From an uncultured Eubacteriales bacterium (GTDB taxonomy: Bacteria > Bacillota > Clostridia > Oscillospirales > CAG-382), in NCBI GenBank assembly GCA_934444645.1, contig CAKSCV010000009.1:20439-84438 (forward strand): DNA of 64,000 nt. The letters run 5' to 3'. The first letter of the stretch is position 1. The number at the start of each line of letters is the position of its first letter. Shown piece after piece: positions 612 through 61,068 of the stretch. A program made the translations under genes and the position numbers. The notes beneath the pieces are model-generated. The model was not told the DNA's origin and did no database searches. It saw only the letters and a list, made by a program, of their open reading frames with translations.

Positions 612-1619
612 TTACAGAAGCGGTATGCCGTGCTCCTCGCACGCCTTGACCGTCTGTTCGTCCCAAATGCTCGATTGCACCTCGCCGATGTGCGCACAGC
701 CCATCATGAGCATACATAACCGCGATTGACCGATGCCGCCGCCGATGGTGAGCGGCAATTCGTTCGCAAGCAGCATTTTATGGAACGGAAGCTTGCTGCG
801 TTCTTCGCACCCGGCGAGCTTTAACTGACGCGCAAGCGATTCGGCATCCACGCGAATGCCCATGGAGGACACCTCAAACGCGCGCTCTAACACTTCGTTC
901 CAAAACAGAATGTCGCAGTTGAGATCCCAGTCGTCGTAGTCGGGCGCACGGCCGTCGTGCGGCTTGCCGTTTTTGAGCGCACCGCCGATCTGCATGATGC
1001 AGGCGGTCTTATGTTTCTTGACAAACACATTTTCACGCTCATGCGGCGTAAGATCGGGATACAGTTCTTCAAGCTCTCCGGAGGTGATGAACGCCACTTC
1101 GTTCGAAAGCGTGGTGCGCAGCTGCGGAAAATGTACGTATAAGCGGTCTTTCACGCGGCATATCGTGTCCACGATGGTTTTGACGATGAGCTTGAGATAG
1201 TCGAGATTGCGGTTCTCGCGCGTGATGATCTTTTCCCAGTCCCACTGATCGACATAGATCGAATGGATGTTGTCGAGCTCCTCGTCGCGGCGGATGGCGT
1301 TCATATCGGTATATAAGCCGTTTCCGACTGCAAAATTGTATTTTTTGAGTGCCAAACGCTTCCATTTGGCAAGCGAATGTACGACCTGCGCTTCGGTGCC
1401 GATGGCGGGAACATCAAAGCTTACCGGGCGTTCGTAGCCGTTTAGGTTGTCGTTCAAGCCGCTGTCCTCGGTGACAAACAGGGGAGCCGACACGCGCTTT
1501 AAGTTGAGAGCGGCGGCAAATTCGTTCTGAAAGGTCTGCTTGATATAGGCGATGGCGCGTTGGGTGTCATATTCGTCAAGCACGGGCGCATAGCCTTGGG
1601 GAATCTGAATTTTGTTCAT
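612..1619 (-). CDS. asnA: Aspartate--ammonia ligase (asparagine synthetase A)
   Basis: AsnA signatures are present: VVHSLAKWKR, YVDQWDWEK, APDYDDWDLN..ILFWN, SSMGIRVD and TIGGGIGQSRL. The start was moved to ATG 1619 (MNKIQIP...) behind an AAGGA RBS. The track ORF begins 27 nt further upstream. Confidence 0.9.
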   Translation of the reverse strand: MNKIQIPQGYAPVLDEYDTQRAIAYIKQTFQNEFAAALNLKRVSAPLFVTEDSGLNDNLNGYERPVSFDVPAIGTEAQVVHSLAKWKRLALKKYNFAVGNGLYTDMNAIRRDEELDNIHSIYVDQWDWEKIITRENRNLDYLKLIVKTIVDTICRVKDRLYVHFPQLRTTLSNEVAFITSGELEELYPDLTPHERENVFVKKHKTACIMQIGGALKNGKPHDGRAPDYDDWDLNCDILFWNEVLERAFEVSSMGIRVDAESLARQLKLAGCEERSKLPFHKMLLANELPLTIGGGIGQSRLCMLMMGCAHIGEVQSSIWDEQTVKACEEHGIPLL

Positions 1620-1731
1620 AGAAACGTCCTTCTGACACAGAAACAACGCTGTGCCGCTGTGATAAATGATAAAAACATTTTATCACGTTTCACAGGCTCT
1701 GTCAAGCTTTGAAGGGCATTTTTTCGCGGCA

Positions 1732-16828: not shown

Positions 16829-17455
16829 TTGTCAAGAACTTTATCCGAAACGCGAAGAAAACCGTTTATGCGCCGCTTGTGTGCAGTGTGTGCCATGCTT
16901 TTGCTTGTGCCGCTGTTGGCGTCCTGCTCGGATACCGCCGGCAAAAAAACGCTGTGTCAAACCCTGTTTTCGCCCTATACCGCCGAAATCGAATTTGCCT
17001 TTGATAAAGACGGCGCATCGGTCTGCGGCAGGGCGCATCTGACGCGCGGCGAAACCGTGCGTATCGATATTCTGTCGCCGGACCCGTTTACCGGGATCAG
17101 TGCCGAAATGAGTGCCGATGACCGTGCGGAGCTAATCAGTCTTTCCTATTCGGGCATTAAGGCGGCACTTCCGAAAAACACGCTCGATAAGCTTGACCTT
17201 ATGCTGTCGTTATTTGCCGACCGCGCGGCTTCATGCGTGGAAAAAATGCCTGCCAAAGCCTTCGAACCCTGCGAGGACGTGTATACCGTCGAAGGGCTTG
17301 CCGAGGTAAAACCATATAAGGTCTCGTATACCTATGCGGATGTGCAGGTGTTGCTTGTGTACGATTGCAAAACCGGCACACCGCTCGATATCTGTGCCAA
17401 GACCGACGGAAGCGCGGCCGAGGTGAAAATAACGAAATTCAAAGGAACGACTTAA
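16829..17455 (+). CDS. Lipoprotein of unknown function
   Basis: The signal peptide carries a lipobox (LLLVPLLASCSD). The start is TTG 16829, 6 nt after GGAGGG, with an alternative ATG at 16868. It occupies the position that ydcC holds next to alr in Bacillus. Confidence 0.6.
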   Translation: MSRTLSETRRKPFMRRLCAVCAMLLLVPLLASCSDTAGKKTLCQTLFSPYTAEIEFAFDKDGASVCGRAHLTRGETVRIDILSPDPFTGISAEMSADDRAELISLSYSGIKAALPKNTLDKLDLMLSLFADRAASCVEKMPAKAFEPCEDVYTVEGLAEVKPYKVSYTYADVQVLLVYDCKTGTPLDICAKTDGSAAEVKITKFKGTT

Positions 17456-17489: not shown

Positions 17490-18623
17490 ATGCTGAATCA
17501 TACCGATGTAAAAAAAACAAGAGCTGTGATCGACCTGAATGCGATTGCGCAGAATTATACGCATACCGCAAAAGTTTGTGCGCCTGCCAAAGTGGCTGCG
17601 GTGGTCAAAGCCGATGCTTACGGCCACGGTGCGCTTGCCGTGGCGAAACGGTTGAATACCGTCGGCTGTGATTTTTTCACCGTTTCGAACATCGACGAAG
17701 CGCTTGAGCTTCGCATCGGCGGCATAACGGGGACGATCTTGGTGCTCGGCTATGTGCTTGACGAGTTTTTGCCGGAAGCGGTGGAAAACGATATTTCGCT
17801 TGCCGTGGACACGGCGGCGCATTTGAAAACGATTTTACAGGCGGCTGACGGCAGAACCGTGAAAATCCATCTCAAGCTCGATACCGGCATGAACCGCACC
17901 GGCTTTTTTGCCAAAGGCGACGGTGCGCTGCTCGACGGAGAATTGCTGGAAGCGGCCGCATTGCTTGAAAACCATCCAAACCTTGTGTGTGAGGGCATTT
18001 TCTCGCACTTTGCCGTTGCGGACGAGCCGAATGGGGCTGCTTTTACCGAAAAGCAGTATGCACGCTTTATCGCAACGGTCGAAAAGCTGCGTGCTCTCGG
18101 GATCAAACCGACCTATCGCCACATTTGCAACAGTGCCGGCATCGTGCGTTTTCCGCAGATGCATTTGGATGCCGTGCGCATGGGTGTGACGCTATACGGC
18201 TGCGGCGATTTGGACAGCGCGTGCGTTCCTGCCATGACCTTCAAAACGCGTGTTATCAATGTGCATACCTTAAAAAAAGGCGAAAGCGTCAGCTATGGCT
18301 GTACCTACACGGCAGATACCGACCGGCGGATCGCTGTTATCGGAGCAGGCTATGCCGACGGCTACAAACGCTGTCTTTCGGGCAAGGGCTATGTGCTGTG
18401 CCACGGAAAGAAAGCACCGCTTGTCGGACGTATCTGCATGGATATGGCCATGGCGGATGTGACGGATATTCCGGAGGCTGGGGTCGGCGACGATGTGGTT
18501 TTGTTCGGCAAGGACGGGAACGAACGGCTTTCTGCCGAACAGCTTGCCGCATGGGCGGACACCATTCCGTATGAGATCCTTTGTGCGGTTTCGGCACGTG
18601 TACCGCGCGTTTATGAGAATTGA
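17490..18623 (+). CDS. alr: Alanine racemase
   Basis: The PLP-lysine motif VVKADAYGHG and full-length Alr character (ICMDMAMADVT, IPYEILC) are present. Confidence 0.92.
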   Translation: MLNHTDVKKTRAVIDLNAIAQNYTHTAKVCAPAKVAAVVKADAYGHGALAVAKRLNTVGCDFFTVSNIDEALELRIGGITGTILVLGYVLDEFLPEAVENDISLAVDTAAHLKTILQAADGRTVKIHLKLDTGMNRTGFFAKGDGALLDGELLEAAALLENHPNLVCEGIFSHFAVADEPNGAAFTEKQYARFIATVEKLRALGIKPTYRHICNSAGIVRFPQMHLDAVRMGVTLYGCGDLDSACVPAMTFKTRVINVHTLKKGESVSYGCTYTADTDRRIAVIGAGYADGYKRCLSGKGYVLCHGKKAPLVGRICMDMAMADVTDIPEAGVGDDVVLFGKDGNERLSAEQLAAWADTIPYEILCAVSARVPRVYEN

Positions 18624-18869: not shown

Positions 18870-18898
18870 TTGCATTTTTTCGGTAAAAAGACTATAAT
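18870..18898 (+). promoter_or_regulatory. sigma-A-type promoter of the ATP-grasp/racemase/MurE operon
   Basis: TTGCAT (18870-18875), 17 nt, then TATAAT (18893-18898). Confidence 0.55.
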
Positions 18899-18968
18899 AT
18901 TCTTATCCTGGATTCGTATGCCTGAATCTGAAAATGATCGATATAAAAAAGAAAGGCGGTATCCCGTC

Positions 18969-20927: not shown

Positions 20928-22415
20928 ATGAAACATACGTTGAACGACTATATAAAGCTGTTAGGCGAAAACAGCTTAATCGAAAAATTAAAGCTTGCGG
21001 ATCCGTCCGCCGCCGTGGAAAATGTCACCTATAATTCCAAAGAAGCCGGAAAAAACACGCTTTTTATCTGCAAAGGTGCGCATTTTAAGGAAGAATACTT
21101 AAACGAGGCTCTGTCGCGCGGCGCGTTCTGCTACCTTTCGGAAACCGAATATGCCGCAGGCGCCGCTTGCATAGTTGTAAGCGATATCCGCCGCGCCATG
21201 GCGGTCGTCTTCGATTATTTTTACGACAGCGTGTGGAAAAACCTCGATCTTATCGGCATCACTGGCACCAAAGGAAAATCCACCACGACGTATTTCATCA
21301 AATACATACTCGACGAATATCTGAAAAGCGAAAATCGGCCGTCCTGCGCCTACATTTCGTCCATCGATACCTATGACGGCGCAGAAAAATTCGAATCGCA
21401 CCTCACCACGCCGGAGGTCGGCGAGCTGTACAAGCACTTTTCCAATGCCGTAAAGGCGAAAATTCCGTATCTTGTCATGGAGGTCTCGTCCCAGGCACTC
21501 AAATATGACCGTGTGTACGGCGTCGGCTTTGATATCGGCGTGTACCTAAACATCGGCGAAGATCACATCAGTTCGGTGGAGCATTCGGATTTTGACGATT
21601 ATTTCGCTTCAAAAATGAAGCTGTTTTCCCATTGCAAACGCGCCTGCGTGAGCCTTGATACGCTGCGCTGCGATGAGGTGCTTGCGGCGGCAAGCGTCTG
21701 CGAAAAGGTGATAACCTTCTCGACAACCGATGAAAAAGCCGATGTTTTTGCCTATAACATCCACAAATCCGGCAACGATACCGTCTTTACCGTCCGCACG
21801 CCGGACTATACCGAAGAAATCACGCTTACCATTCCCGGCCTTTTCAACGTGCAGAACGCACTTGCCGCCATCAGCGTGTGTCTGCTGCTCGGCATTCCGA
21901 AGCACTTTGTGTATGTGGGACTTATGAAAGCGCGTTCCTCCGGACGCATGGAAAGCTATGCCAATGCGGACAACAGCGTGGTGGCTATCGTCGATTATGC
22001 GCATAACAAGCTCAGCTTTGAGTGCCTGTACGATTCGGTGACCAAGGAATTTCCCGGCAGACGCATTGTCACGGTGTTCGGCTGTCCGGGCGGCAAGGCG
22101 TTCCAGCGGAGAAAAGACCTCGGCGAGCTTGCCGGAAAATATTCCGATTTTGTTTATATCACCGAAGAAGATCCGGGTGAAGAGCCGCTTATGCAGATCT
22201 GCGAACAGATTGCCGAACACGTGGCGGCGCAAGGTTCAGCCTATGAGATCGAACCGGACAGAGGCGAAGCCATCCGCAAGGCGATTTTGTCCTCCGGGCG
22301 TGAAACGGTGGTGCTCATCACCGGCAAGGGCAACGAAACCCGGCAAAAGCGCGGCACAAAATATGTTCCCTGTGAGACGGATGTCGCATATGTCAAAAAA
22401 TACTTAAAAGAATTC
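20928..22415 (+). other. MurE module of the fusion
   Basis: It closely resembles streptococcal L-Lys-adding MurE as I recall it (TLFICKGAHFKEEYL, EVSSQALKYDRVYG, DYFASKMKLF). Where DAP-adding MurE carries DNPR, this protein reads EDPG (YITEEDPGEEP). Confidence 0.7.
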
Positions 22416-23294
22416 GATGTGGAGCATAAGATCGACGCGTCGGAAAAAATCAGCGGTTTCCAAAGCGTGCTTCCGGCCTTCCGCAAGCTGTTCGGCAAAA
22501 CGATTCTCATCAAGCTCGGCGGCAGCATTATGGAAAGTGAAAGCGCACTCAAAAATCTTTACGAAGATATCGAAATGCTCAAAATGGTTGGTGCTAAGGT
22601 CGTGCTGGTGCATGGCGGCGGCAAGGCAATTTCGGCGGCTCTTAAGAAAAACGGCATTGTGCCGGAATTCAAGGGCGGCTATCGGGTGACCGGCAAAGAC
22701 GCCATCGGCATTGTCGAGGAGATCCTGTCCGGCAAGGTCAATAAGGCCATCGTGCAGGGACTCAAAGACGAAAATCTGAACGCCTGCGGCCTTTCCGGAA
22801 AGGACGGCGGCCTCATCACGGCTGTGCGTAAAACCATTCCCGAGGGTGATATCGGCTATGTCGGCAATATAACCAAGGTAGAACCGAAGGTGTTAGAGCT
22901 GCTTATGGAAAACGGCTTTTTGCCGGTGGTTTCGCCTGTTTCCTCGTCGGATAAGGGCGAGACGCTCAATGTCAATGCCGACGACGCGGCATTTGCCGTC
23001 GCCGAAGCACTGCACGCGGATACGCTCGTGTTTTTGACCGATGTGGACGGAATCTTACTCGATGTCAACAATACCGATACGCTTGTCAACACGATTTCGG
23101 CGGATAAGGCGGCCGACCTCATCGAAAACGGCTTTATCGACGGCGGCATGATGCCGAAACTAAAGAACTGTATAAACTCCGTCCGGAACGGCGTTTCCGA
23201 GGTGGCTATCCTCAACGGCAGCGTGCGGTATAATTTGGTTTCCTACTTCATTACCAAAGGAAAGATCGGTACGACCATTTCGGAAAAAGGATAA
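20928..23294 (+). CDS. murE: In-frame fusion: Lys-type UDP-MurNAc-L-Ala-D-Glu ligase (MurE) + N-acetylglutamate-kinase-like (AAK) domain, 788 aa
   Basis: A single uninterrupted ORF. The N-terminal ~496 aa carry the Mur ligase P-loop GITGTKGKSTT plus TTPE, MEVSSQ and DYAHN. The C-terminal ~266 aa carry NAGK marks: IKLGGS, VLVHGGG, GYRVT, NVNADDAA, LTDVDGI and GGMMPK. Confidence 0.78.
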   Translation: MKHTLNDYIKLLGENSLIEKLKLADPSAAVENVTYNSKEAGKNTLFICKGAHFKEEYLNEALSRGAFCYLSETEYAAGAACIVVSDIRRAMAVVFDYFYDSVWKNLDLIGITGTKGKSTTTYFIKYILDEYLKSENRPSCAYISSIDTYDGAEKFESHLTTPEVGELYKHFSNAVKAKIPYLVMEVSSQALKYDRVYGVGFDIGVYLNIGEDHISSVEHSDFDDYFASKMKLFSHCKRACVSLDTLRCDEVLAAASVCEKVITFSTTDEKADVFAYNIHKSGNDTVFTVRTPDYTEEITLTIPGLFNVQNALAAISVCLLLGIPKHFVYVGLMKARSSGRMESYANADNSVVAIVDYAHNKLSFECLYDSVTKEFPGRRIVTVFGCPGGKAFQRRKDLGELAGKYSDFVYITEEDPGEEPLMQICEQIAEHVAAQGSAYEIEPDRGEAIRKAILSSGRETVVLITGKGNETRQKRGTKYVPCETDVAYVKKYLKEFDVEHKIDASEKISGFQSVLPAFRKLFGKTILIKLGGSIMESESALKNLYEDIEMLKMVGAKVVLVHGGGKAISAALKKNGIVPEFKGGYRVTGKDAIGIVEEILSGKVNKAIVQGLKDENLNACGLSGKDGGLITAVRKTIPEGDIGYVGNITKVEPKVLELLMENGFLPVVSPVSSSDKGETLNVNADDAAFAVAEALHADTLVFLTDVDGILLDVNNTDTLVNTISADKAADLIENGFIDGGMMPKLKNCINSVRNGVSEVAILNGSVRYNLVSYFITKGKIGTTISEKG
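22494..23291 (+). other. Amino-acid-kinase (ArgB-like) module of the fusion
   Basis: All the canonical NAGK segments listed for the fusion are present. A linker of about 25 aa (DVEHKIDASEKISGFQSVLPAFRKLF) separates the module from MurE. Confidence 0.7.
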
Positions 23295-25820: not shown

Positions 25821-28800
25821 TTAAGCGATCAAATCGGAATCGATGACTGACTCGGAATCGGTCGGTTCGTTTTCACGTACAATCAGGTTGTCGAAGCGGA
25901 AGCCGACACCCTTTCCGCCGACCGGGTTTGAGTAGAGTATGAACTGGTCGGTCGCGCTTTCTGTGGCATCTGCTGCGACGGTGAAGTCGAATGAAACGTG
26001 CTTCCATTCGCCGTTTGCGGTGATTTTTCCGCTTGAACCGACAACGTGGTCGCGGTTCGTGCCGCCTGCGTCCTTATATTGCATATTGAACTGCACGACT
26101 CCCGTAAAGCCGGAGTCGATAGCCTCGGACGTACCCGAAGAGGCGAGCATTACGTCGCAATCGACCGAATAGGTGTAGCCGGGCTTGACGGTTATGCGGC
26201 AGGTGCTGCTGGTATAAATGCTCTCCGTGTCGTTTTCGGGAAGAGTCTTGTAGCATTTATTGACTTCGTTGTTCGGGTCAGCGGCAATGCTTGTGACCGA
26301 TTTCCAACCGTAGAAATCAAATGTCGTGTTGTCCGCGTCGGCTTGGAACACGATCTTTCGGGTATCGGGCAGGGGATTTTCGCGAACGATAAGGTTATCG
26401 AACAGATAGCCGACGCCTTTTTCGCTGACCGGGTCGGTGTAGAACCGGAATTGGTCATAGGTGCGCACGGTCGAATCCTTCGGAATGGTGAATTCGAAGG
26501 TCCAATGCGTCCATTGCCCGTTTGCCGAAATCTTACCGGTACGTGCGACTACATGGTCTTTTCGTGCGCCGGTGCTGTCGGCATACGGTACGTTGCAGAG
26601 AATCTCGGCTTTGAAGTTTTGCCCGATGACGTTTGTCGTACCGCTTGACGCGATCATGACGTCGCATTCCACGGAATACGTATAGCCGGGCTTGTAGGTG
26701 GTGGCGTGATCGACATACAGCCAAGTTTTGTCGTCATTTTTCGGAATGTTGCTATAGCAGAGGTTGTCTTTGTCGTTCGGGTCGGCGATGATAGTGAAGT
26801 TGCCGTGTCCGACAAGCGCGCCTTTGCCGCTTTCGCCGTCGGCGTAGATGAGAACCGGACGTGTGTCAGGTGTTTTGTTTTCGGCAACCACGATGGTATA
26901 TGAGCCGCCGCCGACCGTGCCGAGGTTGTCGCCGCTTTCGCGCTTCATGCTTTCCGGCAGCGCAAGTGTTGCCGTAATGCCGTTCGGAATGGTGACGTTC
27001 CAGATAAAGGTCTTGTCGTTCTTCTGATAGCTCCAAGCGGATTCGATAAGACCGTGTGCACTCTTGTAGGTGACATCGATGTCCTTCAAATCCTTGAAGA
27101 AATACGGTTTGACGGTGATTTCATCGAAGCCGGGCTTTGTCGCCTTGATACCGCCTAAGTATTCGAAGAACCAGCGCGCCGCGTTGCCGATGGAGTAGTG
27201 GTTGATGCTGTTTCCGACGCCGACCGTGCCGCCCCAGCTTTCGGTAACTGTACCGCCGCCGCTGGTTTCCACCATGTTGATCAGCGACGGATATGTGGTC
27301 TGTGTGACAAGGCGGTAGGCATCGTCCTCGTAGCCGTAATCGCACAGAACGCTTAAAATGTATTCGGTGGACATGAAGCTGGTGGTGAAGTGGTAGCCGC
27401 TTGCCGCAACATATTCATGAAGCTTTGCAGCAAGTGCCTCACGGTTTTCCGGTTCGGCAAACTCAAAGGCAAGCGCATACACAATACCGCTCTGATTTTT
27501 GGAGGAGTAGTCGTTTTCACCGGCAAGATAATACTTGTTGTTGAAAGCGACGCGTGCCTTTTCATATTCGGCAAGATAGCCTGCCGCTTCGTCGGTCTTG
27601 CCTAAAATTTCTGCCATTTCGGCAGCACGCTTATACATGAGCGTGTAGTAGACATTGCAGAAAAATTCGTCGCTGACCCTGCTCGGCGCTTGGTGGTCGC
27701 CGTAGGTGTAAGTTCCATTGGACGGCAGAACGTCGCCGGAGGCAACCTGGTTTCTGCGGTAATTGATAAGCGTTTTGATTTTTGCGTATTTGGAGGCGAT
27801 GACATCGGTGTTTCCGTAGAATTTGTACAGCGTGAGCGGAACGATATAGTCCTCATCGCCCCAGCCGTAGGTGTAGTCGCCGCCCATTTTACGGCCGGAT
27901 TCCGTCCAGCGCTCTAAGAAGCGGTTGTTGTCCATGTACCAGCAGGCGGTGTTGACAAATACCTGCATATCGCCGTTCCAGAAGTTTTTCTCGCGCGTCG
28001 GGCAGTCCATAGGACCTGTCACGATGTTGGAGCGGTAGGAACGCTTGACGGCGTCCCAAACCATGGCAAGACCGGTATGCGAGGTCTCGAAATCGCCGGT
28101 CACATCGAGGTCGTTGTACATTTCAACCTTCTTGACGGTCGAGATATCATACGTTCCGGAATAGCCGGAAACATAGATATAGCGGAAGCCGGTAAAGGTG
28201 AATTCCGGAATATAAACTTCTTCCTTCGCGCCCTTGCAGATGTAGGTGTCGAGGTTGCGCGCACCGTAGCACGCTCTGCCGTCGGCATAGGTGTCCTTGT
28301 AGAAGAAAACGTCGCCGTATTCCGAAACGTTGGCCGTGTAGCCGAGCGTATCCGAACCGTTTAAGGATTCGCAATAGCGGATGAGGATCTGTTCGCCGGG
28401 CTTGGTATTCTTAAGAATCAACTTTACGCGGCCGGTGGAGTTCAGGCCGAAATCGTAGCAGGTCGATCCGTCGGCAAGCGTAAAGATTGTTTTGGCGGTC
28501 ATTTCGTTGTTGATGCGAACCGGTTCGTAATGCTCTTGGGAGCGCGTTTTACCGGTGACAGAGTGTTCTTCGGCACTTGCCCAGCTTCCGGCGTTTAAGT
28601 CGGAGCACCAATCTGCGGTTTCCAAACGTGCGTCGTAGCGTTCGCCGAACTGGATATCGTTTTCAACGCGCGGTGAAGCGGTGACCTGCCAGTTCTTGTT
28701 CGTGCCGATGACAAGGCTTGTGCCATCGGTGTATTCGATCTCAAGCTGCATCATAAGAGAGGGAATGTTGTTGTAGAAAGCACCCCAGGATTCGCTGTTG

Positions 28801-31031
28801 TTGAAGCCGCTTGCAAGCTCTGCGCCGATAATATTTTTGCCGGTGTGAACGAATTCGGTTACATCAAAGACCTGATATTCCGTAAGATATTGCATTGAGC
28901 CGGGAAGAAAACGTGCGTCGGTCACGCGTTCGCCGTTGAGGTAGGGAACATATAAGCCTTGTGCGGTGGCATACAGCGTTGCTTTTTCGATTTCCTTTTC
29001 GGTGAGGAAGCCGCTGCGCATATACATTGCACGCGTGCGAAGCCGCGGATGCAGCTTGGTTTTATGGATTTTTCGAGTACCGGACAGTGTGGTTGTCTGC
29101 CAGCCTTCTTGTTCGCTGTTCGCCCAGAAACCGCACATACTGCTGTTGGTAAAGCCGTTACTCGTATCAAAATTCTCGGTCGTACCGTCGGTGTAGGTGA
29201 CCGAAAGGCAGCCGCGCACACCGGCAAGGAAATGCATGGTGTTATCCGACAGATAGCCGCGGACATTGATGAAGTTTGTGCCGCTTGCAAGGGCGCTTGT
29301 CACATCCTTGACGCCGGTCAAGTGCCAGCCGTTCACCTTTTCGGTCGGAATCTGCGTGTTGCCGATGAATAAGTCGATCGGCAGGCTGCTCTGAAATTCG
29401 ATTTCGGCTTTGGAAACCGTTTTGGAGATGTTAATTTTGCGCTGTAAGTAGTAGCGCGTGTATTCGGTCGGACCGATCCAATCGCCGAGCGGCAGAGTGT
29501 ACGAGGGCATTTCCTCTAAGGTCGCAAGATAGCTTTCGGGCGCGGAAATAAACGCCGCGTCAAACGTCTTTTGGGTGTTTTTTTCCAACTGGATCGTACC
29601 TGCCTTGTCGAGGATTGCTTCTTCAAGCGTCTGACGAACGCGCTCTTCGGGGTCAGCCACGCGCGAAACGAGCGTTTCGTAATCGACCCGGAGAAGCGTT
29701 TCATACGGGCGGAAGAAGCCGCGGCTGTTCACACCGCCTAAAATACCGCTGCGGTAAAGCGCGTAGACGGCTTCATAAAAGCCTTGATAGTCTTCAATAT
29801 CCGGAATGTTTTTGATGGTGTTGATGGCTGTAAGTCCGTCTGCCGGGAGCGCGTTATAGAACATTTCGGCTGCTTCGCCGCGCGTGATGGCTCTCGTGTA
29901 ATCGCCAAAGCCCGAAGTGGGAAGAAGCGAATATGTTTCGGCATAGGCAAGATAGTCTGCAAAGGCAGCGCCCTCAGGGATTTCTGCCGTTTTGCCGGAT
30001 AAGACCGCGTGTAAACGCGATGTGAGAAGAATCATCTCATACGGCGTCATGTAGGTTTCAAGCCCTGCAAGGTCGTCGCCGTTTGCGTCCTCATAAATGG
30101 CGTATAGGCTGTAAGCGCCGGCTTCAGTCGTTGTTACGATCTGCGACGCATCGTCCTTTGCTTTTGACCAGCCGATAAACCGATAGCCGCTGCCGGGAAC
30201 CGAAAGCTTGGGCAGTGCCGCACCCGGAAGATAGCTCTTGTGCGTGTTCGGGAAAAGCGTTTCGAGATCTTTTGCCATGCCGTCGTTCTTGGCTTCCGTG
30301 TAGAAGGTGATGTCGGCATATTCGTCATACCACAGCTCAATGTTGTCGAAGTAGCAGGTCTTGCCGTTGCCGCCCATCATGAATAAATACACGTATTGGA
30401 GCGCGAAAACATTGGAATTGGTGTAGCTCGTTTCCGTAAGACTGGTAGCTTGGAATTCTTCTTTGGTGCAGATGGTGAACGTGTAGGCGTTTTTCTTGAA
30501 AGAATCCGAACCGAAGCGGATGGCACCTGCTTCCGGCGCACCTTCATAGCAGCGGTTGATAAGGAAGCGGCAGCGACCGCTGTATCCTTTGCCGCCGTCA
30601 TAGGCGTGAAAAACAAGCGTATACTTGCCCGGCTTGGAAATAATGTCTTTTTCTCTGCCGAAATTCAGGCGGTAGATCGGGTAATTTGTTTTTCCGAGCA
30701 TGGAAAGCACCTTGCCGTCGCCGACCGGGTTATCGACAATGGTAAACGTCGGATTCGTGCCGTCGCCGTCGCCCGTCCAAACAAGAGACGTGTCGGAAAG
30801 CGTCGCACCGCTTGCGGCATACGGCGAAACGTAGCCGATGTCGTAGCGATAATCGCCGATGCTTGCAGCACCTTCAAAATCCTGCTTCCAGATGAGCTTT
30901 CCGTATTCGCCGGTCGTCGTTTCCATAAGCGGTGTCGCCGTGCCGTTGTAGGATACGGCGCTTACGCCGACAGCGAAAAGCGAAAAACAGAGAACAAACG
31001 CCAAAAGCAGTGTGATGTGTCGTTTTTTCAT
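25821..31031 (-). CDS. Giant secreted multidomain alpha-L-rhamnosidase (GH78), ~1736 aa
   Basis: A signal peptide is present (MKKRHITLLLAFVLCFSLFAVGVSA). The GH78 N-domain pattern (ATLYATAQGLYVPYLNGERVTD...YQVFDVTEFV) and the catalytic-domain motif GPMDCPTREKNFWNGD (~27965-28012) are both visible. The start was set at ATG 31031, 10 nt after AAAGGAGG. Confidence 0.8.
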   Translation of the reverse strand: MKKRHITLLLAFVLCFSLFAVGVSAVSYNGTATPLMETTTGEYGKLIWKQDFEGAASIGDYRYDIGYVSPYAASGATLSDTSLVWTGDGDGTNPTFTIVDNPVGDGKVLSMLGKTNYPIYRLNFGREKDIISKPGKYTLVFHAYDGGKGYSGRCRFLINRCYEGAPEAGAIRFGSDSFKKNAYTFTICTKEEFQATSLTETSYTNSNVFALQYVYLFMMGGNGKTCYFDNIELWYDEYADITFYTEAKNDGMAKDLETLFPNTHKSYLPGAALPKLSVPGSGYRFIGWSKAKDDASQIVTTTEAGAYSLYAIYEDANGDDLAGLETYMTPYEMILLTSRLHAVLSGKTAEIPEGAAFADYLAYAETYSLLPTSGFGDYTRAITRGEAAEMFYNALPADGLTAINTIKNIPDIEDYQGFYEAVYALYRSGILGGVNSRGFFRPYETLLRVDYETLVSRVADPEERVRQTLEEAILDKAGTIQLEKNTQKTFDAAFISAPESYLATLEEMPSYTLPLGDWIGPTEYTRYYLQRKINISKTVSKAEIEFQSSLPIDLFIGNTQIPTEKVNGWHLTGVKDVTSALASGTNFINVRGYLSDNTMHFLAGVRGCLSVTYTDGTTENFDTSNGFTNSSMCGFWANSEQEGWQTTTLSGTRKIHKTKLHPRLRTRAMYMRSGFLTEKEIEKATLYATAQGLYVPYLNGERVTDARFLPGSMQYLTEYQVFDVTEFVHTGKNIIGAELASGFNNSESWGAFYNNIPSLMMQLEIEYTDGTSLVIGTNKNWQVTASPRVENDIQFGERYDARLETADWCSDLNAGSWASAEEHSVTGKTRSQEHYEPVRINNEMTAKTIFTLADGSTCYDFGLNSTGRVKLILKNTKPGEQILIRYCESLNGSDTLGYTANVSEYGDVFFYKDTYADGRACYGARNLDTYICKGAKEEVYIPEFTFTGFRYIYVSGYSGTYDISTVKKVEMYNDLDVTGDFETSHTGLAMVWDAVKRSYRSNIVTGPMDCPTREKNFWNGDMQVFVNTACWYMDNNRFLERWTESGRKMGGDYTYGWGDEDYIVPLTLYKFYGNTDVIASKYAKIKTLINYRRNQVASGDVLPSNGTYTYGDHQAPSRVSDEFFCNVYYTLMYKRAAEMAEILGKTDEAAGYLAEYEKARVAFNNKYYLAGENDYSSKNQSGIVYALAFEFAEPENREALAAKLHEYVAASGYHFTTSFMSTEYILSVLCDYGYEDDAYRLVTQTTYPSLINMVETSGGGTVTESWGGTVGVGNSINHYSIGNAARWFFEYLGGIKATKPGFDEITVKPYFFKDLKDIDVTYKSAHGLIESAWSYQKNDKTFIWNVTIPNGITATLALPESMKRESGDNLGTVGGGSYTIVVAENKTPDTRPVLIYADGESGKGALVGHGNFTIIADPNDKDNLCYSNIPKNDDKTWLYVDHATTYKPGYTYSVECDVMIASSGTTNVIGQNFKAEILCNVPYADSTGARKDHVVARTGKISANGQWTHWTFEFTIPKDSTVRTYDQFRFYTDPVSEKGVGYLFDNLIVRENPLPDTRKIVFQADADNTTFDFYGWKSVTSIAADPNNEVNKCYKTLPENDTESIYTSSTCRITVKPGYTYSVDCDVMLASSGTSEAIDSGFTGVVQFNMQYKDAGGTNRDHVVGSSGKITANGEWKHVSFDFTVAADATESATDQFILYSNPVGGKGVGFRFDNLIVRENEPTDSESVIDSDLIA
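25863..26880 (-). repeat. Two tandem ~168-aa CBM-like modules at the C-terminus of the GH78 protein
   Basis: The two modules align: PDTRPVLIYADG...KPGYTYSVECDVMIASSGT...KGVGYLFDNLIVRENP and PDTRKIVFQADA...KPGYTYSVDCDVMLASSGT...KGVGFRFDNLIVRENEP. A third, related module near the N-terminus ends in FDNIELWYDE. Confidence 0.7.
29620..30050 (-). other. Internal SLH-like segments in the GH78 protein (approximate limits)
   Basis: DYTRAITRGEAAEMFYNAL and YEAVYALYRSGILGGVNSRGFFRPYETLLRVDYETLVSRV resemble S-layer-homology motifs (GI.G...F.P...TR.E). Confidence 0.4.
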
Positions 31032-31054
31032 GAATTGCAAACCTCCTTTATCGG

Positions 31055-34000
31055 TTAAGCGTTAAATGCGTTCTGCAAAAAGGACACCGAAAGGTCAAGC
31101 CAACGCGAATAGTCCGCATAGCTCTCACCGAGTCCGACACCGTGGCCGGCATCGGAAAACGCATGGCATTCAGCCGTTTTCCCGGCGGCTTTTAAGGCGG
31201 CGGTAATCGCTTCGGCGTTTTTGGAAAAATTCACAGCCGTGTCCTTTTCGCCGTAAAAGGCGAAAGTGGACGGCATATCGTCTAAATTGTACGTATAGGA
31301 ATATTTGGCGATTTCCGTTTCGTCGTCTTTTTTGTCGCCCAAGAAGATTTCCGGCATGGTGGGATAGGTGCCGTCGCCGAGCGTTACGACCGGATAGCCG
31401 AGAATGCAGGCGTTCGGATGGGCGTTATACGCAGAAATACTGTCGGAAACGGGTGAAACAAAGGTGTTTGCTTTCTCACAGACGAGCATGGCAAGATGTC
31501 CGCCGGCCGAGAAGCCGCAAACAGCGATCTTTTCCGGATCGATTCCGAAGTCTTTTGCATAGCGGCGTACAAACTGCACGCTGCGAATGCCGTCAGCCAA
31601 AATGGCGTTTCCGTCATAGGGCTTGTAGCGGTAGTTGACTACAAAGGCCGAAATGCCCTTTTTGTTGTACGCCTTGGCAATGGCTGTGCCTTCGCTGTCA
31701 TCGGACAGCTGAAAGTAGCCGCCGCCCGGAAAGATGACGACTGCACTGTCTGCGCCGTCGGCGAGATACGCGCGTATGGTCGCCTGTAAAGTGTCCGCCC
31801 CTTTATCGTACGGAATCGTTCCGCTTTCCCAAAGCGCGATTTTTTCGTGACTTGAAATTTTTGCCATATCGATTTCCTCGTTTTCCCTGCCACCGGTGTT
31901 AACGACGCTGTTCGCGGCGTTTTTTGCAAGGTCGGTCTTGGCGGCAATCTCTTTTGCAAGATACGTTCCGAGAGCTTTTGCACCGTTTTTGTCGGGATGC
32001 GCGCCGTCGCTTGTGGTGTAAGAGAACGAGGGCTTGTCAACGAAAAAGACGTTGTTGTCGCCTAAGGCTTCCACAACCGCTTTGATGTCGGCGTTGTGCA
32101 TACCGGCAAAGGGCGATACCGCGAAGATCGGTGTGTTCGGGTATTTTTCGCGTAGCCGGTTCAAGACTGCCGTGTACGCTTCGGTAAAGGCGGCACTGTC
32201 GCTTGTCGGATCGTTGTGTCCGTGATTGATGACAATCGCTGCCGGAGCCGGCGTTTCGGAAAGCGGCATACCGTTATAAAGCGAATCGATGATATCGAGG
32301 CATTTCGGAACGCCGCCGCTGCCGCCGCGCGTCACGCCGCTGGCACCGAAGCCGTTGGTGTAGGAGACGGCGTTCAACCGGTGAGAAGCGACAAACGGAT
32401 ATTCGTTTGAGGCGGAGTTGCTGTCCGGCGTCGAGCCGGTGCCAAGCACGTTGATGCCCTCGGTAATGCTGTCGCCATAGTAGAGAATGACGGGATTGGT
32501 CGGGAGAAGTCCCGTGATTTTGCCGCCATCCTCAACCTCGGGGCATTCCAAAACAAAGCCCATGGCGCTCGTCCATTTTTCTTGGTATTCGTTGAAGCCG
32601 TCCACGATAATGCGGAAGGTGTGCTCGTTCTCGGAAAGGTTCTCGGCAAGGAGCAAGCGTCCCTCTTTGACGGTCGTCATGCGCTTCGGAAAACCTCCGT
32701 CTGTCGACACGGCAATGACCGGAGCGGGAGAGGCCGTCGAATGGAGCTTTAACCAAACCTTGCTTGTGCCGGAAACCTTGAAATAGAATTCCGCGCCCTG
32801 CGAGAAGGTCGCCTTGCAGGTTACGCCGTTCACATCCTTGTCGAACCAACGACCCATATAGCCGACCGGTTCGGAAATGGTTTGGTAGTTAAGCGCATAG
32901 CTTTCGGGCTTGAAATCCTTGTAGATGTCGGATACGCGGCTTGCAATATAATTTGCCAACAGCTTATAGCCGGTGTAGCCGCAGTGAAGCTCGTCGATCG
33001 GCATGTAGCCGCCGATGTTTTCGTAGGTAATGCCGCAGGCATAATAGTTATCGATGACCGGAAGTCCGTACTTTTCACCGAACTTCTTGATAACGCTTAC
33101 AGTTGTTTCCAAAGACGAGCGGTTTCGTTGGGTAGTGACCGGCGGCGTCATCAGAATGATCTGCGCCCTGCCGTTTGTTCGTTCCATACAGGTCTCGACG
33201 ATACGCGCATAGTAGCCGGTCTGGGTCTTGGCGTAGGAGGCGTAGTGAGAAGCCGCAGTATCGGCATCAATGGTGTCTGTTAACCCATTGTTCGTGCCGA
33301 GCATGATGAGAACGATGTCGGTCTCTTCGGAAAGCGCGACTTTCGAAAGCTGATTGTTGTAGTATAATTCTGCCGAATAGCCGCAGCGGCCGGCGTTTTT
33401 GACGTTCGCTCCCGTGATTTCCGCAAGAAAATACGGATAGCTTTCGGCGTGAACGTTCATGGTCCCTGCCGGATTGGAGCCGTAATCGCCCTCCGTCAGG
33501 CTGTCACCGATACAAACGATGTTTTTGCCTTTGAGACTGTTTTCTTCCTCTTGTTCGACTTGTTCGACAAGCGAAATTTCCGCTGCCGCAACCGATGCCG
33601 GGCGAATGCCGTCCGAAAGCGTGCTTTCAAACGCGATAAAGCGGATTTTGGTTGTATTTTCCGGAATGTTCGAGGCGGTAAGCCGTGTAAAGCCGTTTTG
33701 CGGCTCGGCGGTGACGGCGGACGAAGAAAGATACCGCATGCCGTCGTAATAGACCGCATAGAATGCACGTGCGTCCGTGCCGCTTGCCGGCGTGTAGAGG
33801 CAGTAGGCGCGTTTGTCGGCAGCACCGGTAGAAGCGATAAGCTCAGGTGTGCTTTCGTCGCGCACGATCAGAAGGTCGGGCAGCGCCGAAATGTCGGTGT
33901 TGGCCACCCATTCCTCCGCCGCGCCCTCAAGCGCCGGAACGCCGTTCTTGCGCAAGGCAGCTTCCGAAACAGAGGTGGAAAGACCATCCTCCTTGCCGGT

Positions 34001-35107
34001 GTTATATATATCGGAAAGGCTTGCCGTATTCATGCCGATTCCGGCGGCTTCGCTGATATTTAAGGAAGAAGAGATTCCGGCGTCGCTTTCTTCATGTGCT
34101 GTTTTCGCGTTGTTTGCCGCAACGCCGCCGACAATGCTGTTCGCGCCGGTAAGAGCTCCGGTATTTAACGTATTGACAAGGCTTGCTCCGGACTTGTAGC
34201 CGAGATTGAGTCCCACACCGCCGCCGATAAACGCGGCTTTGGACGTAATACTTCCGCCGTTCTTGGCAAGCGTTATCGTTCCGTTGACGTTCGCGCCTGC
34301 AATACCGCCGGCATAACCCGGATAAACGCTTTCTCCGGAAGCAGAGACTTTGCCTTCGTTTTCCACGCGGCAAAGAGAACCGGTGTTGTAGCCTGTAATA
34401 CCGCCGGCAAACACCGAAATGCCCTCGGCAGCCGCCGTGCCCGAGACGGAAGCGGTATTTATGCTGCCGGTGATAGCGCCGCGGTTTTCACCGGCCATGC
34501 CGCCAATGTTTAAGCGGTAAAGAGAGACTTCGGCAGAAAGCTTTCCGTTTGCAGTGCAGCCGCTTACCGAACCGCGGTTTAAGCCGACGATGCCGCCGAT
34601 ATCCGTAAGATAGGCGGTATCGGAAAGCGTCGCTTTGACCGTTGCCTTGCAGTTTCGGATGACCGTTTTTTTGTCGGTCGTGCCGGCGATGCCGCCGGCA
34701 TAGGCGGTAAAGCCGCTGACATCCGGCGTCAGATAGCCGTCGAACGTGCAGTTTTCGATGACGGTCGTGCCCTTGGCGATCGCTGCGATTCCTCCGACAG
34801 CCGTGCTGCCGCTTGCCGTACCGCGAACGGCGACATTCCGGATCTCGGCGTTTTCGGCGGCGCCGAACAGTCCGGCTTTGCCGCTTATACTTACCGTGTG
34901 ACCGCCGCCGTCAAATTTGCCGGTAAACGGTGCGTCGGATGAGCCGATCGGCGTGAAATCGTCGGGTAAGACCGCGTCGGCGGTCAGTTCATAGCTGCCG
35001 CCAAGATCCGAAATTTCGGACAGATCCGTAATCGGCACAGCGCGGCAGACAAGCGACCCGGCGAAAAACAACGCGGCACTGAGTAAGCATGTTGTGATTT
35101 TTCGCAT
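31055..35107 (-). CDS. Secreted multi-esterase: GLUG-like repeats + SGNH hydrolase + CE2-like beta-sandwich/SGNH + alpha/beta-hydrolase esterase, 1350 aa
   Basis: A signal peptide is present (MRKITTCLLSAALFFAGSLVCRA). A repeated GGIAG/GGIVG/GGMAG region (~34090-34930) is followed by GDSLTEG (33488-33508), GDSITEG (32456-32476) and the nucleophile elbow GFSAGG (31499-31516) with HGGG-like FPGGGY. RBS AAAGGAG. The stop lies 23 nt upstream of the GH78 start. Confidence 0.75.
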   Translation of the reverse strand: MRKITTCLLSAALFFAGSLVCRAVPITDLSEISDLGGSYELTADAVLPDDFTPIGSSDAPFTGKFDGGGHTVSISGKAGLFGAAENAEIRNVAVRGTASGSTAVGGIAAIAKGTTVIENCTFDGYLTPDVSGFTAYAGGIAGTTDKKTVIRNCKATVKATLSDTAYLTDIGGIVGLNRGSVSGCTANGKLSAEVSLYRLNIGGMAGENRGAITGSINTASVSGTAAAEGISVFAGGITGYNTGSLCRVENEGKVSASGESVYPGYAGGIAGANVNGTITLAKNGGSITSKAAFIGGGVGLNLGYKSGASLVNTLNTGALTGANSIVGGVAANNAKTAHEESDAGISSSLNISEAAGIGMNTASLSDIYNTGKEDGLSTSVSEAALRKNGVPALEGAAEEWVANTDISALPDLLIVRDESTPELIASTGAADKRAYCLYTPASGTDARAFYAVYYDGMRYLSSSAVTAEPQNGFTRLTASNIPENTTKIRFIAFESTLSDGIRPASVAAAEISLVEQVEQEEENSLKGKNIVCIGDSLTEGDYGSNPAGTMNVHAESYPYFLAEITGANVKNAGRCGYSAELYYNNQLSKVALSEETDIVLIMLGTNNGLTDTIDADTAASHYASYAKTQTGYYARIVETCMERTNGRAQIILMTPPVTTQRNRSSLETTVSVIKKFGEKYGLPVIDNYYACGITYENIGGYMPIDELHCGYTGYKLLANYIASRVSDIYKDFKPESYALNYQTISEPVGYMGRWFDKDVNGVTCKATFSQGAEFYFKVSGTSKVWLKLHSTASPAPVIAVSTDGGFPKRMTTVKEGRLLLAENLSENEHTFRIIVDGFNEYQEKWTSAMGFVLECPEVEDGGKITGLLPTNPVILYYGDSITEGINVLGTGSTPDSNSASNEYPFVASHRLNAVSYTNGFGASGVTRGGSGGVPKCLDIIDSLYNGMPLSETPAPAAIVINHGHNDPTSDSAAFTEAYTAVLNRLREKYPNTPIFAVSPFAGMHNADIKAVVEALGDNNVFFVDKPSFSYTTSDGAHPDKNGAKALGTYLAKEIAAKTDLAKNAANSVVNTGGRENEEIDMAKISSHEKIALWESGTIPYDKGADTLQATIRAYLADGADSAVVIFPGGGYFQLSDDSEGTAIAKAYNKKGISAFVVNYRYKPYDGNAILADGIRSVQFVRRYAKDFGIDPEKIAVCGFSAGGHLAMLVCEKANTFVSPVSDSISAYNAHPNACILGYPVVTLGDGTYPTMPEIFLGDKKDDETEIAKYSYTYNLDDMPSTFAFYGEKDTAVNFSKNAEAITAALKAAGKTAECHAFSDAGHGVGLGESYADYSRWLDLSVSFLQNAFNA

Positions 35108-37804: not shown

Positions 37805-38614
37805 TTATTTGCTTTGAAGAATTCTGTTCAGTTCGTCGAGCTTTTCTTTGGACGGAACAGCAAAGGACGTCATTTTTCTCTCAAGCGCCGTATATTTGTG
37901 TTCACCCATTTTGTGATAGGGCAAAAGCTCGGTTTTTATCGGCTTGAAAGCGTCAAGAAACGCCTTGACGGCTTTCATGTCTTCTGCCGAATCGTTGACG
38001 TTCGGAATGATTGGAATTCGTATCCAAACGTTTGCCTTAACCTCTAAGAGCTTTCGCAGGTTACTTAAAATCGGTTTGTTGGAAACGCCGACAAATTCTT
38101 TGTGTACGTCATCATTCAACGTTTTTATATCATACAGAAATAAGTCGGTATAAGGAAGCACCCTCTCAAAATTCTCCCATGGAACGAATCCTGCCGTATC
38201 GATGGCGGTATGGATGTGCTCTTGCTTGCACTTTTGTAAGATCTCGCACAGGAAATCGGTTTGCAGCATGCATTCGCCGCCTGAAAAGGTTACACCGCCG
38301 CCGGAGGTTTCGTAAAACGGTCTGTCTTTCTGTATCGTATCAAAAACCTCTTCGACCGTATATTCCTTTCCGCAGATCTGCTTTGCGTCATGAAAACAGA
38401 CAAATTCGGTATTCTTTTCGGTGATGCCTTTGCATCGGCCGCAGCCGGTGCATTTGTCCTTGTAGAATAATATTTGCGGCTTTGGTGATTGACTTTCGGG
38501 ATTGTGGCACCACTTGCATTTCAGATTACAACCCTTGAAAAAAACAGTGGTTCGTATGCCCGGACCATCGACAAACGAATTTCTTTGTATATCAAAAATA
38601 ACTGCTGTATTCAT
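37805..38614 (-). CDS. Glycyl-radical enzyme activating protein (radical SAM)
   Basis: The N-terminus reads VDGPGIRTTVFFKGCNLKCKWCHNPE, with CX3CX2C at 38507-38530. A single Cys-rich insert follows (CTGCGRC...C...C), then GGVTFSGGE. The start is ATG 38614, 8 nt after AGGTGG; an alternative GTG at 38626 abuts the GRE stop. Confidence 0.88.
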   Translation of the reverse strand: MNTAVIFDIQRNSFVDGPGIRTTVFFKGCNLKCKWCHNPESQSPKPQILFYKDKCTGCGRCKGITEKNTEFVCFHDAKQICGKEYTVEEVFDTIQKDRPFYETSGGGVTFSGGECMLQTDFLCEILQKCKQEHIHTAIDTAGFVPWENFERVLPYTDLFLYDIKTLNDDVHKEFVGVSNKPILSNLRKLLEVKANVWIRIPIIPNVNDSAEDMKAVKAFLDAFKPIKTELLPYHKMGEHKYTALERKMTSFAVPSKEKLDELNRILQSK

Positions 38615-38626
38615 CACGGCTGCCAC

Positions 38627-40750: not shown

Positions 40751-40769
40751 TCTGCTCACACTCCTCTCA

Positions 40770-46843: not shown

Positions 46844-46894
46844 TAAATGTACGCTACCTATATTATCAAAAAACGGAAAAAGCGAGGAAAAATC

Positions 46895-54870: not shown

Positions 54871-54880
54871 GGAGGATGTC

Positions 54881-57758: not shown

Positions 57759-57783
57759 ACCGGCACAGTAGAGGCAAAACCGC

Positions 57784-58905: not shown

Positions 58906-58925
58906 CTTGTAAATGAGGTGAAGCC

Positions 58926-61005: not shown

Positions 61006-61068
61006 TTCTTCGACAGCACCTGACGGCACGCATCAAAAACGAAACAAAAACAGAACGGCGGTGTACGG

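Follow-up and report, generated by a model that had tools for sequence, protein, structure and literature searches.

An in-frame fusion of a MurE ligase with an N-acetylglutamate kinase domain in a cell-wall operon of gut Clostridia

Mur ligases have been described in one chain with another enzyme in the MurE-MurF protein of Bordetella (PDB 8F5D; NF008896) and in MurF-Alr (NF008897), and in both cases the partners belong to the same pathway. In N-acetylglutamate synthase of the bacterial and vertebrate-like type (NAGS, or ArgA), an inactive amino-acid-kinase domain provides architecture and regulation (PMC2566978, PMC3329491); its partner is a GNAT acetyltransferase, again of the same pathway, and the arginine site is retained. 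N-acetylglutamate kinase (NAGK, or ArgB) of the hexameric, arginine-inhibited class is represented by the structures from T. maritima (2BTY), P. aeruginosa (2BUF) and Synechococcus (2V5H). For MurE, the S. aureus structure paper reports that the Asn and Arg of the DNPR motif bind the distal carboxylate of meso-diaminopimelic acid (meso-DAP), that Lys-type enzymes lack the DNPR Arg and have an acidic pocket which also admits ornithine, and that selectivity in vivo owes much, in S. aureus MurE, to the size of the precursor pool (PMC3829189). Finally, the aslA-racD operon of Lactococcus lactis and Enterococcus faecium makes a D-Asp cross-bridge on L-Lys (PMC4155827). Here we describe a gene in a 64,000-nucleotide stretch of DNA from an uncultured Eubacteriales bacterium (GenBank assembly GCA_934444645.1, contig CAKSCV010000009.1; the whole stretch is called the window below) in which a Mur ligase is joined in frame not to a partner of its own pathway but to a kinase of the arginine pathway. 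To our knowledge, murE has not been reported within the operon of the described AslA/RacD systems or fused to a kinase there.

The initial annotation of the window had described an in-frame fusion, free of stops and frameshifts, between a full Mur ligase and a kinase with the hallmarks of NAGK, and this description holds. Pfam places Mur_ligase_M at aa 111-317 (1.7e-37), Mur_ligase_C at aa 339-468 (2e-24) and AA_kinase at aa 524-763 (1.9e-46) of the 788-aa protein, and two NCBIfam models exceed their cut-offs, namely TIGR01085 (murE; 296.3 bits against 257.3, over aa 29-483) and TIGR00761 (argB; 239.9 bits against 151.3, over aa 525-761). Exactly this 788-aa sequence is found on 19 contigs of independent metagenomic origin, among them human-gut samples in ENA and Hadza samples, and its 90%-identity cluster has 205 members. 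As to the taxonomic spread of the architecture, which the initial annotation had proposed to trace, more than 120 further clusters at the 90% level, down to 56% identity, retain all three domains, and 27 of the 80 species surveyed carry an intact fusion. The closest genome representative is a metagenome-assembled genome (MAG) of an uncultured Oscillospiraceae bacterium, at 77% identity; the G+C content of the window is 51%. An AlphaFold2 model of the fusion, built on an 84-sequence alignment, has a mean predicted local distance difference test score (pLDDT) of 89.4 and a predicted template modelling score (pTM) of 0.80.

Since an identical protein occurs on 19 independent contigs and the same fusion recurs in 27 of 80 species, the MurE-NAGK fusion is genuine and not an artefact of assembly. 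A stop codon or frameshift missed between two neighbouring genes has no direct evidence in its favour, although the frameshifted or duplicated tails of P0315, P0316, P0357 and P0396 demonstrate that errors do occur in such metagenomic data; it is refuted by the independent assemblies (the 19 contigs, the 205-member cluster and the 27 species genomes, which include cultured isolates) and by purifying selection on the junction, and we leave it practically no probability. Among the odd metagenomic variants of the fusion, P0357 (835 aa), P0396/P0400 (893 aa), P0315 and P0316, in one an internal stretch of ~45 aa of the kinase N-lobe is duplicated in tandem, and the others have read-through C-terminal extensions or frameshifted tails rich in Arg, Pro and Gly; these are probably assembly or sequencing errors. 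NCBI names the fusion proteins 'acetylglutamate kinase', which hides their architecture. Literature searches for a MurE/ArgB fusion returned no relevant description among the papers searched, in agreement with the initial annotation, which had known of no described function for this architecture.

The stretch between the two catalytic units, which had been taken for a linker of about 25 aa, corresponds instead to the N-terminal helix of hexameric NAGKs. Residues ~503-523 align with that helix in the arginine-sensitive enzymes, beginning at chain residue 10 of T. maritima 2BTY, and the alignment with Synechococcus NAGK (2V5H/2JJ4) starts at residue 30, inside the N-terminal helix; the N-terminal extension characteristic of the hexameric, arginine-inhibited subclass, whose helix interlaces the dimers, is therefore present in the window protein. 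It is the sole low-confidence stretch of the AlphaFold2 model (pLDDT 57-64, with helical segments at 504-507 and 511-519), as would be expected of a helix that is normally packed on another subunit. A junction pattern, EYD-x-x-H-x-(L/I)D-x-x-EK…LP, is common to all fusion subclades and to the degenerate forms considered below.

The kinase half has T. maritima NAGK (2BTY) as its best solved relative, to which it aligns without large indels and with none around the N-acetylglutamate (NAG) site. Residue states were read from an alignment of 29 intact fusions with 2BTY. In the window protein the catalytic and substrate residues are K529, G531, G532, H562-G565, R586, N681, N683, D685, D705, G739-G740 and K744, and in T. 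maritima numbering K27, G29, G30, H60, G61-63, R84, N178, N180, D182, D202, G232, K237, G274 and T275 are the same in all 29 fusions. The complete set of ArgB motifs (the K of KxGG, HGGG, the R of RVT, NxNAD, TD and GGMxPK) is found in the window protein and in every one of the 29. We also considered a kinase of the LysZ type, from the α-aminoadipate (AAA) pathway to lysine, and rejected it: the LysW-aminoadipate kinase model scores 141.9 bits, below its cut-off of 223, against 239.9 bits for argB. Ratios of non-synonymous to synonymous substitution (dN/dS; pairwise, Nei-Gojobori) are 0.06-0.31 for the kinase half as against 0.03-0.26 for the MurE half. By these residue states the kinase half would be a catalytically competent NAGK. 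It resembles the hexameric enzymes in its catalytic, NAG-binding and ATP-binding residues and in its N-helix, and differs from them in that its N-terminus continues from MurE, in that the arginine signature is not conserved and in that the gene lies outside an arg operon.

Y15 and K196 of T. maritima NAGK are reported to be arginine ligands (Ramón-Maiques et al. 2006). At the positions of the arginine site the window protein has A517 (T. maritima Y15), T699 (K196), Y773 (E266) and K779 (G272), with G781 at G274. Among the 29 fusions the Y15 column is never aromatic and the G272 column never Gly, while K196 is kept in 10/29 and E266 in 11/29. In XcNAGS-K, arginine inhibition is abolished by E280A and weakened by F35C, G286P and G288S (PMC2566978), and the spacing E-x5-G-x-G of that protein matches T. 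maritima E266/G272/G274. The arginine-binding signature of the hexameric subclass is thus missing from the window protein, and because this signature is not conserved the fused NAGK is probably insensitive to arginine.

The MurE half has the three domains of solved MurEs, the best PDB relatives being 8G6P, 2WTZ and 4BUB (E ~1e-48), and a P-loop, G110-ITGTKGKS-T119, of which G113-T-K-G-K-S118 is invariant in both family alignments (A1 and A2). Standalone sister MurEs, 45-54% identical, end at about aa 497-505, just before the junction helix. Alignment to the MurEs of M. tuberculosis and T. maritima located the amino-acid specificity motif, which reads EED(P/S/A)GE family-wide, in fused, degenerate and standalone proteins alike. 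In the window protein it lies within T-E-E-D-P-G-E-E, so that the DNPR of meso-DAP enzymes is not present. The Lys-type equivalog model PRK14022 gives 326.5 bits, below its cut-off of 536, and no DAP-type model reaches its cut-off. As in Lys-type enzymes, the DNPR Arg is absent and the pocket acidic; the differences are that the motif itself reads EDPG and not DNPA or DDPR, and that a 290-aa kinase follows at the C-terminus. Because EDPG replaces DNPR here, while the downstream paralogues of some relatives have DNPR, the window MurE is by its motif a non-DAP enzyme, predicted to use a basic diamino acid. L-Lys is plausible as that amino acid and L-Orn equally compatible, the sequence not separating the two; of the Lys-type assignment in the initial annotation, the exclusion of DAP stands and the choice of Lys over Orn does not.

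Eleven sister species (loci L029, L040, L045, L047, L049 of Sellimonas caecigallum, L054, L056, L059, L062, L065 and L079) have a second MurE paralogue, of 488-528 aa and 30-34% identity and with a canonical DNPR, ~150-1400 bp downstream of the non-DAP MurE. For some relatives at least, motif and position would accordingly make the non-DAP MurE an accessory enzyme beside one of DAP type. Lysinibacillus sphaericus has a vegetative wall with Lys-D-Asp and a spore cortex with DAP, and the tandem enzymes possibly serve two wall types of this kind, such as vegetative wall and spore cortex. Two further proteins from the search of representatives, P0186 (978 aa) and P0255 (979 aa), apparently contain two MurE-like modules per chain, the second half of P0186 being highly diverged.

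The fusion gene is the last of a three-gene operon in which it follows an ATP-grasp ligase and an amino-acid racemase (Table 1). The operon is recognised by its gaps, since only 12 bp separate the ATP-grasp and racemase genes and 18 bp the racemase gene and the fusion, a 345-bp gap precedes the ATP-grasp gene and the next gene downstream of the fusion is convergent. Across that 345-bp gap lies alr, which is also found upstream of the module in L030, L091 and L092. The cell-wall character of the neighbours noted in the initial annotation (alr, an ATP-grasp ligase and an Asp racemase) is confirmed, as is the absence of other arg genes nearby: a Pfam scan of essentially all ORFs of at least 90 aa in the 64-kb window revealed no further arg or mur gene.

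Table 1. Positions of the fusion gene, its parts and neighbouring features in the window
Feature	Positions	Strand	Remarks
MurE-NAGK fusion ORF	20928..23294	+	ATG start, 788 aa plus stop, no internal stop
MurE half, aa 1-497	20928..22418	+	N-terminal, central ATPase and C-terminal domains; TIGR01085 above cut-off
Amino-acid specificity motif E414-D415-P416-G417	22167..22178	+	At DNPR position of meso-DAP MurEs, within T-E-E-D-P-G-E-E
Junction, aa 498-523, NAGK N-terminal helix (…ASEKISGFQSVLPAFRKLFGK)	22419..22496	+	Aligns with N-helix of 2BTY, 2JJ4/2V5H
NAGK catalytic domain, aa 524-788 (predicted)	22497..23291	+	TIGR00761 240 bits; 2BTY E = 3e-67
Aspartate-type amino-acid racemase, 239 aa	20190..20909	+	TIGR00035 asp_race 220 bits (cut-off 93); Pfam Asp_Glu_race
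ATP-grasp ligase, 402 aa	18969..20177	+	Gene calls of 401-405 aa in relatives
Candidate promoter, by eye (TTGCAT, 17 nt, TATAAT)	18871..18899	+	70 bp upstream of ATP-grasp ATG
alr, alanine racemase	17490..18623	+	TIGR00492 341 bits (cut-off 168); Pfam Ala_racemase_N/C

The start of the ATP-grasp gene was placed at ATG 18969 because relatives are consistently called at 401-405 aa; the mechanical ORF, which begins at TTG 18870, exceeds this length, and that TTG lies inside the promoter-like stretch. The candidate promoter was found by eye and is without statistical support, a scan with consensus promoters and terminators having returned sites no more frequently than in shuffled sequence. Rfam gave no match at gathering score anywhere in the window and only a chance-level match, with no riboswitch or T-box, in the 345-bp gap. 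The ATP-grasp protein has weak matches to Pfam ATP-grasp_3 (8.9e-4) and to NCBIfam Ddl and CPS-like ATP-grasp models, and a search of solved structures gave no significant match; by gene context it is a candidate D-aspartate ligase of the AslA/Aslfm kind. The racemase also exceeds the NCBIfam equivalog cut-off for CuyB, cysteate racemase (214 against 190 bits), and automatic annotation could give it either name; context favours D-Asp. The likeness to the AslA/Aslfm and RacD operon of L. lactis and E. faecium, in which ATP-grasp and aspartate racemase genes are adjacent as they are here with a 12-bp gap, rests on gene context, and the window differs in that the pair is followed by a MurE that would supply the acceptor residue.

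The distribution of the fusion was surveyed by scanning a single genome of each species with a MurE-half alignment, and the resulting 80 loci were sorted by ORF length, NAGK motifs and neighbours. An intact fusion of 779-801 aa with all six NAGK motifs was found at 27/80 loci, and at one more it is cut by a contig end; among the carriers are Muriventricola aceti, Pseudoflavonifractor sp. An85, Lawsonibacter spp., Evtepia, Intestinimonas and Ca. Fimenecus, besides numerous uncultured relatives. Cultured carriers are Muriventricola aceti H5_61 (NZ_JAOQKF01), Pseudoflavonifractor sp. An85 (NZ_NFHE01), Lawsonibacter sp. LCP25S3_F5 (JBQKKA01) and Oscillospiraceae 44-34 and 50-16. At 8/80 loci, for example in Pseudoflavonifractor phocaeensis and a Lawsonibacter MAG, MurE is followed by a tail of 150-222 aa without any NAGK motif; 43/80 have a standalone MurE, and in 1/80 MurE is fused to an ATP-grasp protein instead. 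An exhaustive search of 1.84 billion representatives at 50% identity yielded only one other full-length fusion cluster (P0135, 55% identity), followed by standalone MurEs of ~500 aa at 45-54% identity, which makes the fusion, on present sequences, a fairly compact clade with unfused sister MurEs. No second NAGK-like sequence was found in the accessible flanks (±8-10 kb) of any of the 80 loci.

The order ATP-grasp, racemase, MurE is found at about 50 of the 80 loci, also in Lachnospiraceae (Sellimonas, Dorea, Coprococcus), Anaerovorax and Clostridium aminobutyricum, so that the trio must predate the fusion and has a broader distribution. All metagenomic contexts that were examined contain the trio, each with different flanks, and none contains arg genes. 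The MurE-ATP-grasp fusion mentioned above is a 915-aa ORF (L070:243-2990, in the uncultured Oscillospiraceae MAG CAKUBI010000036.1), which carries a non-DAP MurE in frame with an ATP-grasp part 34% identical to that of the window over aa 40-409; it is an independent 'Rosetta stone' tying MurE and ATP-grasp to one pathway. In a neighbour-joining tree of MurE halves all fusions fall into one clade, inside which at least three separate degenerate and several tail-less lineages are found. No relic of the N-helix was recognisable in the fusion clade's standalone MurEs; those of L029, L040 and L045 end in low-complexity tails of 22-26 aa. Because a single MurE clade holds all fusions and the junction is homologous across subclades, the tree points to one fusion event with subsequent repeated inactivation, trimming or loss of the kinase.

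Relatives of 650-719 aa are complete proteins with an in-frame, degenerate kinase tail. These dead tails (150-232 aa) keep the junction or N-helix (LPAL…), β1, part of helix A and the whole C-lobe, while the NAG-binding N-lobe is wholly or partly deleted and every catalytic residue replaced. Their profile matches residues 10-274 of T. maritima NAGK with an HHalign probability of 96% (E = 4e-9); a Foldseek search of a degenerate model against the PDB was dominated by MurE matches and uninformative on the tail. A homology search from one dead-tail protein recovered at least 45 dead-tail clusters together with intermediates, some clusters comprising 500-840 member sequences, and at least three independent lineages carry dead tails. 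Two intermediates of 735-736 aa, P0336 and P0353, are recently inactivated forms. Compared with the nearest intact fusion, their identity is 84-86% over the MurE half and 66% over the tail, yet every motif is altered: KYGGS is replaced by KYDGG or NWDGG, the segment HGGG…RVT is missing, NCNADD reads ECSADD or ECAADE, and GGMVPK reads GEMIPV or GDMVDK.

Dead tails have dN/dS values of 0.10-0.69 within lineages and remain in frame to the native C-terminus across synonymous divergences (dS) of about 0.4-1.0, as would be seen under relaxed purifying selection. AlphaFold2 predicts the 215-aa dead tail of P0285 to form a confident α/β domain, with pLDDT mostly 80-95. Were the tail a neutral relic, the first nonsense mutation should have truncated it, and yet the frame stays open; the pattern fits retention as a pseudo-enzyme for some purpose other than catalysis, overlaid by a measure of decay. 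That purpose is not absolute, as tail-less lineages exist. The dead-tail relatives look analogous to NAGS in that a NAGK-derived domain without kinase chemistry is kept fused to another enzyme. The differences are that the partner here is a Mur ligase rather than a same-pathway acetyltransferase, that the arginine signature retained in NAGS is not retained, and that the kinase of the window's own protein is still intact.

From the observed architecture, conservation, residue states, selection and operon context we arrive at a reading to which, taken as a whole, we give even chances: a bifunctional MurE-NAGK with an arginine-blind kinase, in which the kinase domain is also a structural partner of MurE. 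A clade of gut Clostridia of the Oscillospiraceae type would then possess a genuine bifunctional protein, whose N-terminal 497 aa would be a non-DAP MurE in an operon with ATP-grasp ligase and Asp racemase that most likely builds D-Asp-bridged (A4-type) peptidoglycan. The C-terminal 290 aa would be a NAGK descended from the hexameric, arginine-inhibited class, its N-helix now joined to MurE and, with the arginine-binding signature lost, probably free of feedback inhibition. Expressed 1:1 with MurE from a wall operon and not from an arg operon, the kinase would escape arg-operon control. Both halves would perform their canonical reactions, and after the single fusion the kinase domain would also have become a structural partner of MurE, in stability or oligomerisation; such a partnership would explain why a folded, dead remnant is kept in frame rather than truncated.

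Several observations weigh against this reading. Neither ATP-grasp nor racemase is present within 8 kb of the fusion in L030 and the Ca. Fimenecus group, and several lineages within the fusion clade have a plain, tail-less MurE, from which it follows that MurE can do without the domain. The dN/dS of dead tails is 2-3 times the MurE value, and up to 0.9 between independent lineages, so part of the dead-tail pattern may be slow decay. As to arginine, Phe518 of the window lies one position past the Y15 column, and conclusions about the arginine site depend on the register of the alignment; the loss of the site may, moreover, predate the fusion.

A more specific version of the bifunctional reading, rather than its opposite, couples the kinase to ornithine supply: MurE would add L-Orn (giving an L-Orn-D-Asp, A4β wall, as in Lactobacillus fermentum) and the arginine-blind NAGK would be a dedicated valve through which the acetylated ornithine pathway stays active, at the pace of wall synthesis, under gut arginine that would switch off an ordinary ArgB. 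Partners fused in one chain usually act in one pathway (the Rosetta-stone argument), NAGK catalyses the controlling step on the way to ornithine (PMC3329491), none of the fusions keeps the arginine-inhibition signature, and the gene sits in a wall operon and never beside arg genes in the contexts examined. MurE selectivity can follow precursor pool size instead of the active site, as in S. aureus (PMC3829189), walls that combine L-Orn with a D-Asp bridge are known (PMC4155827), and the wall type of the carrier genera is uncharacterised (PMC11382707); our own literature searches on the wall chemotype of these genera gave nothing usable. Against these points, NAGK stands three steps from ornithine, which leaves no direct channelling, arginine catabolism is an alternative source of ornithine, and the MurE sequence does not distinguish Orn from Lys. 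Furthermore, in many relatives the kinase is dead or absent although the MurE motif (EEDSGE) and the operon are the same, so that the supply of MurE substrate is independent of the fused kinase. We also know of no Orn-type organism reported to have a MurE-NAGK fusion, and on balance we hold ornithine coupling to be unlikely, if worth keeping in mind. About as likely is the accident already raised in the initial annotation, in which the only argB became joined to murE by intergenic loss, the halves are uncoupled and the dead tails are pseudogene remnants left after loss of arginine biosynthesis. The canonical look of both halves would agree with it, as would the relaxed constraint on dead tails, the complete loss of the tail on several occasions and the progressive shortening that can be followed from 232 through 222 and 168 to 152 aa. 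A neutral stop anywhere past aa ~500 would, however, be harmless, and yet at least 45 clusters and 8/80 species stay open to a homologous C-terminus across dS 0.4-1.0, and the remnant is predicted to fold confidently; persistence across a large, Oscillospiraceae-level clade and dead remnants under selection are unlike a neutral tether, and a fortuitous origin is to be accepted with that qualification only. Of the three explanations among which the initial annotation had not chosen, the fortuitous fusion and a regulatory coupling of arginine with wall synthesis both stay tenable.

By analogy with NAGS, whose dead kinase domain controls its acetyltransferase, the NAGK-derived domain might be a built-in regulatory and oligomerisation module of MurE, which would tie wall precursors to ornithine flux where it is catalytic, as in the window's organism (possibly for an L-Orn-D-Asp wall), and act as a pseudo-kinase multimer holder or metabolite sensor where it is dead; we consider this quite improbable, and were it true, it would be control of a Mur ligase of a kind not described before. 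That the kinase acts on a carboxylate of the wall (the γ- or α-carboxyl of stem-peptide D-Glu, or D-Asp), for example in priming amidation or ligation, had been another suggestion of the initial annotation and has the wall-operon context on its side. The sequence of the kinase half speaks for NAG as substrate: its argB score of 240 bits (cut-off 151) is well above the 142 bits for LysW-aminoadipate kinases, its best match, T. maritima NAGK, aligns free of indels in the region of the NAG site, and the NAG-binding R84, N178 and N180, like the ATP residues, are invariant in 29/29. Given also that MurE and ATP-grasp enzymes activate their own carboxylates (PMC4155827), a wall-carboxylate kinase is very hard to credit.

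Elsewhere in the window, the same-strand genes leading up to the fusion are, in order, brnQ, a gene for a bifunctional NAD(P)H-hydrate repair enzyme, one for a 208-aa protein, alr, and the ATP-grasp and racemase genes. Neither Pfam nor NCBIfam has a match for the 208-aa ORF (16829-17455) that separates the NAD(P)H-hydrate repair gene from alr; conservation is 100% among the four closest contigs, but in more distant relatives the ORF does not belong to the module. An AsnA-type aspartate-ammonia ligase is encoded at 612-1646 (-), ~19 kb from the module. Two regions, 25821-35107 (-) and 46847-49030, encode very large glycan-degrading proteins of secreted type: an α-L-rhamnosidase of 1739 aa that carries a CBM_4_9 domain, a 1350-aa protein in which GDSL esterase and α/β-hydrolase/feruloyl-esterase-like domains are joined, and another rhamnosidase-like protein. 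Such a set suggests a degrader of plant polysaccharides of the rhamnogalacturonan type. A PFL-like glycyl-radical enzyme (710 aa) and its radical-SAM activase (37805-40759, -) adjoin a glucuronate isomerase and AraC-type regulators. Finally, a surface-polysaccharide cluster at 53680-63631 (+) comprises a Wzy_C/O-antigen-ligase-like protein, five glycosyltransferases and three proteins of 470-506 aa without a family match.

Both enzyme families are textbook material; what is undescribed in the papers searched is their union, its persistence in a large clade of abundant gut anaerobes and the repeated conversion of the kinase half into a retained pseudo-enzyme. The fusion marks a widespread module of non-DAP MurE, ATP-grasp ligase and Asp racemase in Oscillospiraceae and Lachnospiraceae, families whose wall type is largely uncharacterised. 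Hosts sense DAP-type and Lys/Orn-type muropeptides differently (NOD1 versus NOD2), and for that reason the wall chemotype matters for host-microbe signalling. Intact, freshly killed, trimmed and absent kinases among close relatives constitute a natural test series on what a fused domain adds after its chemistry has been lost. If the ornithine link is true, the locus would be a wall operon that carries its own feedback-resistant enzyme of a precursor pathway.

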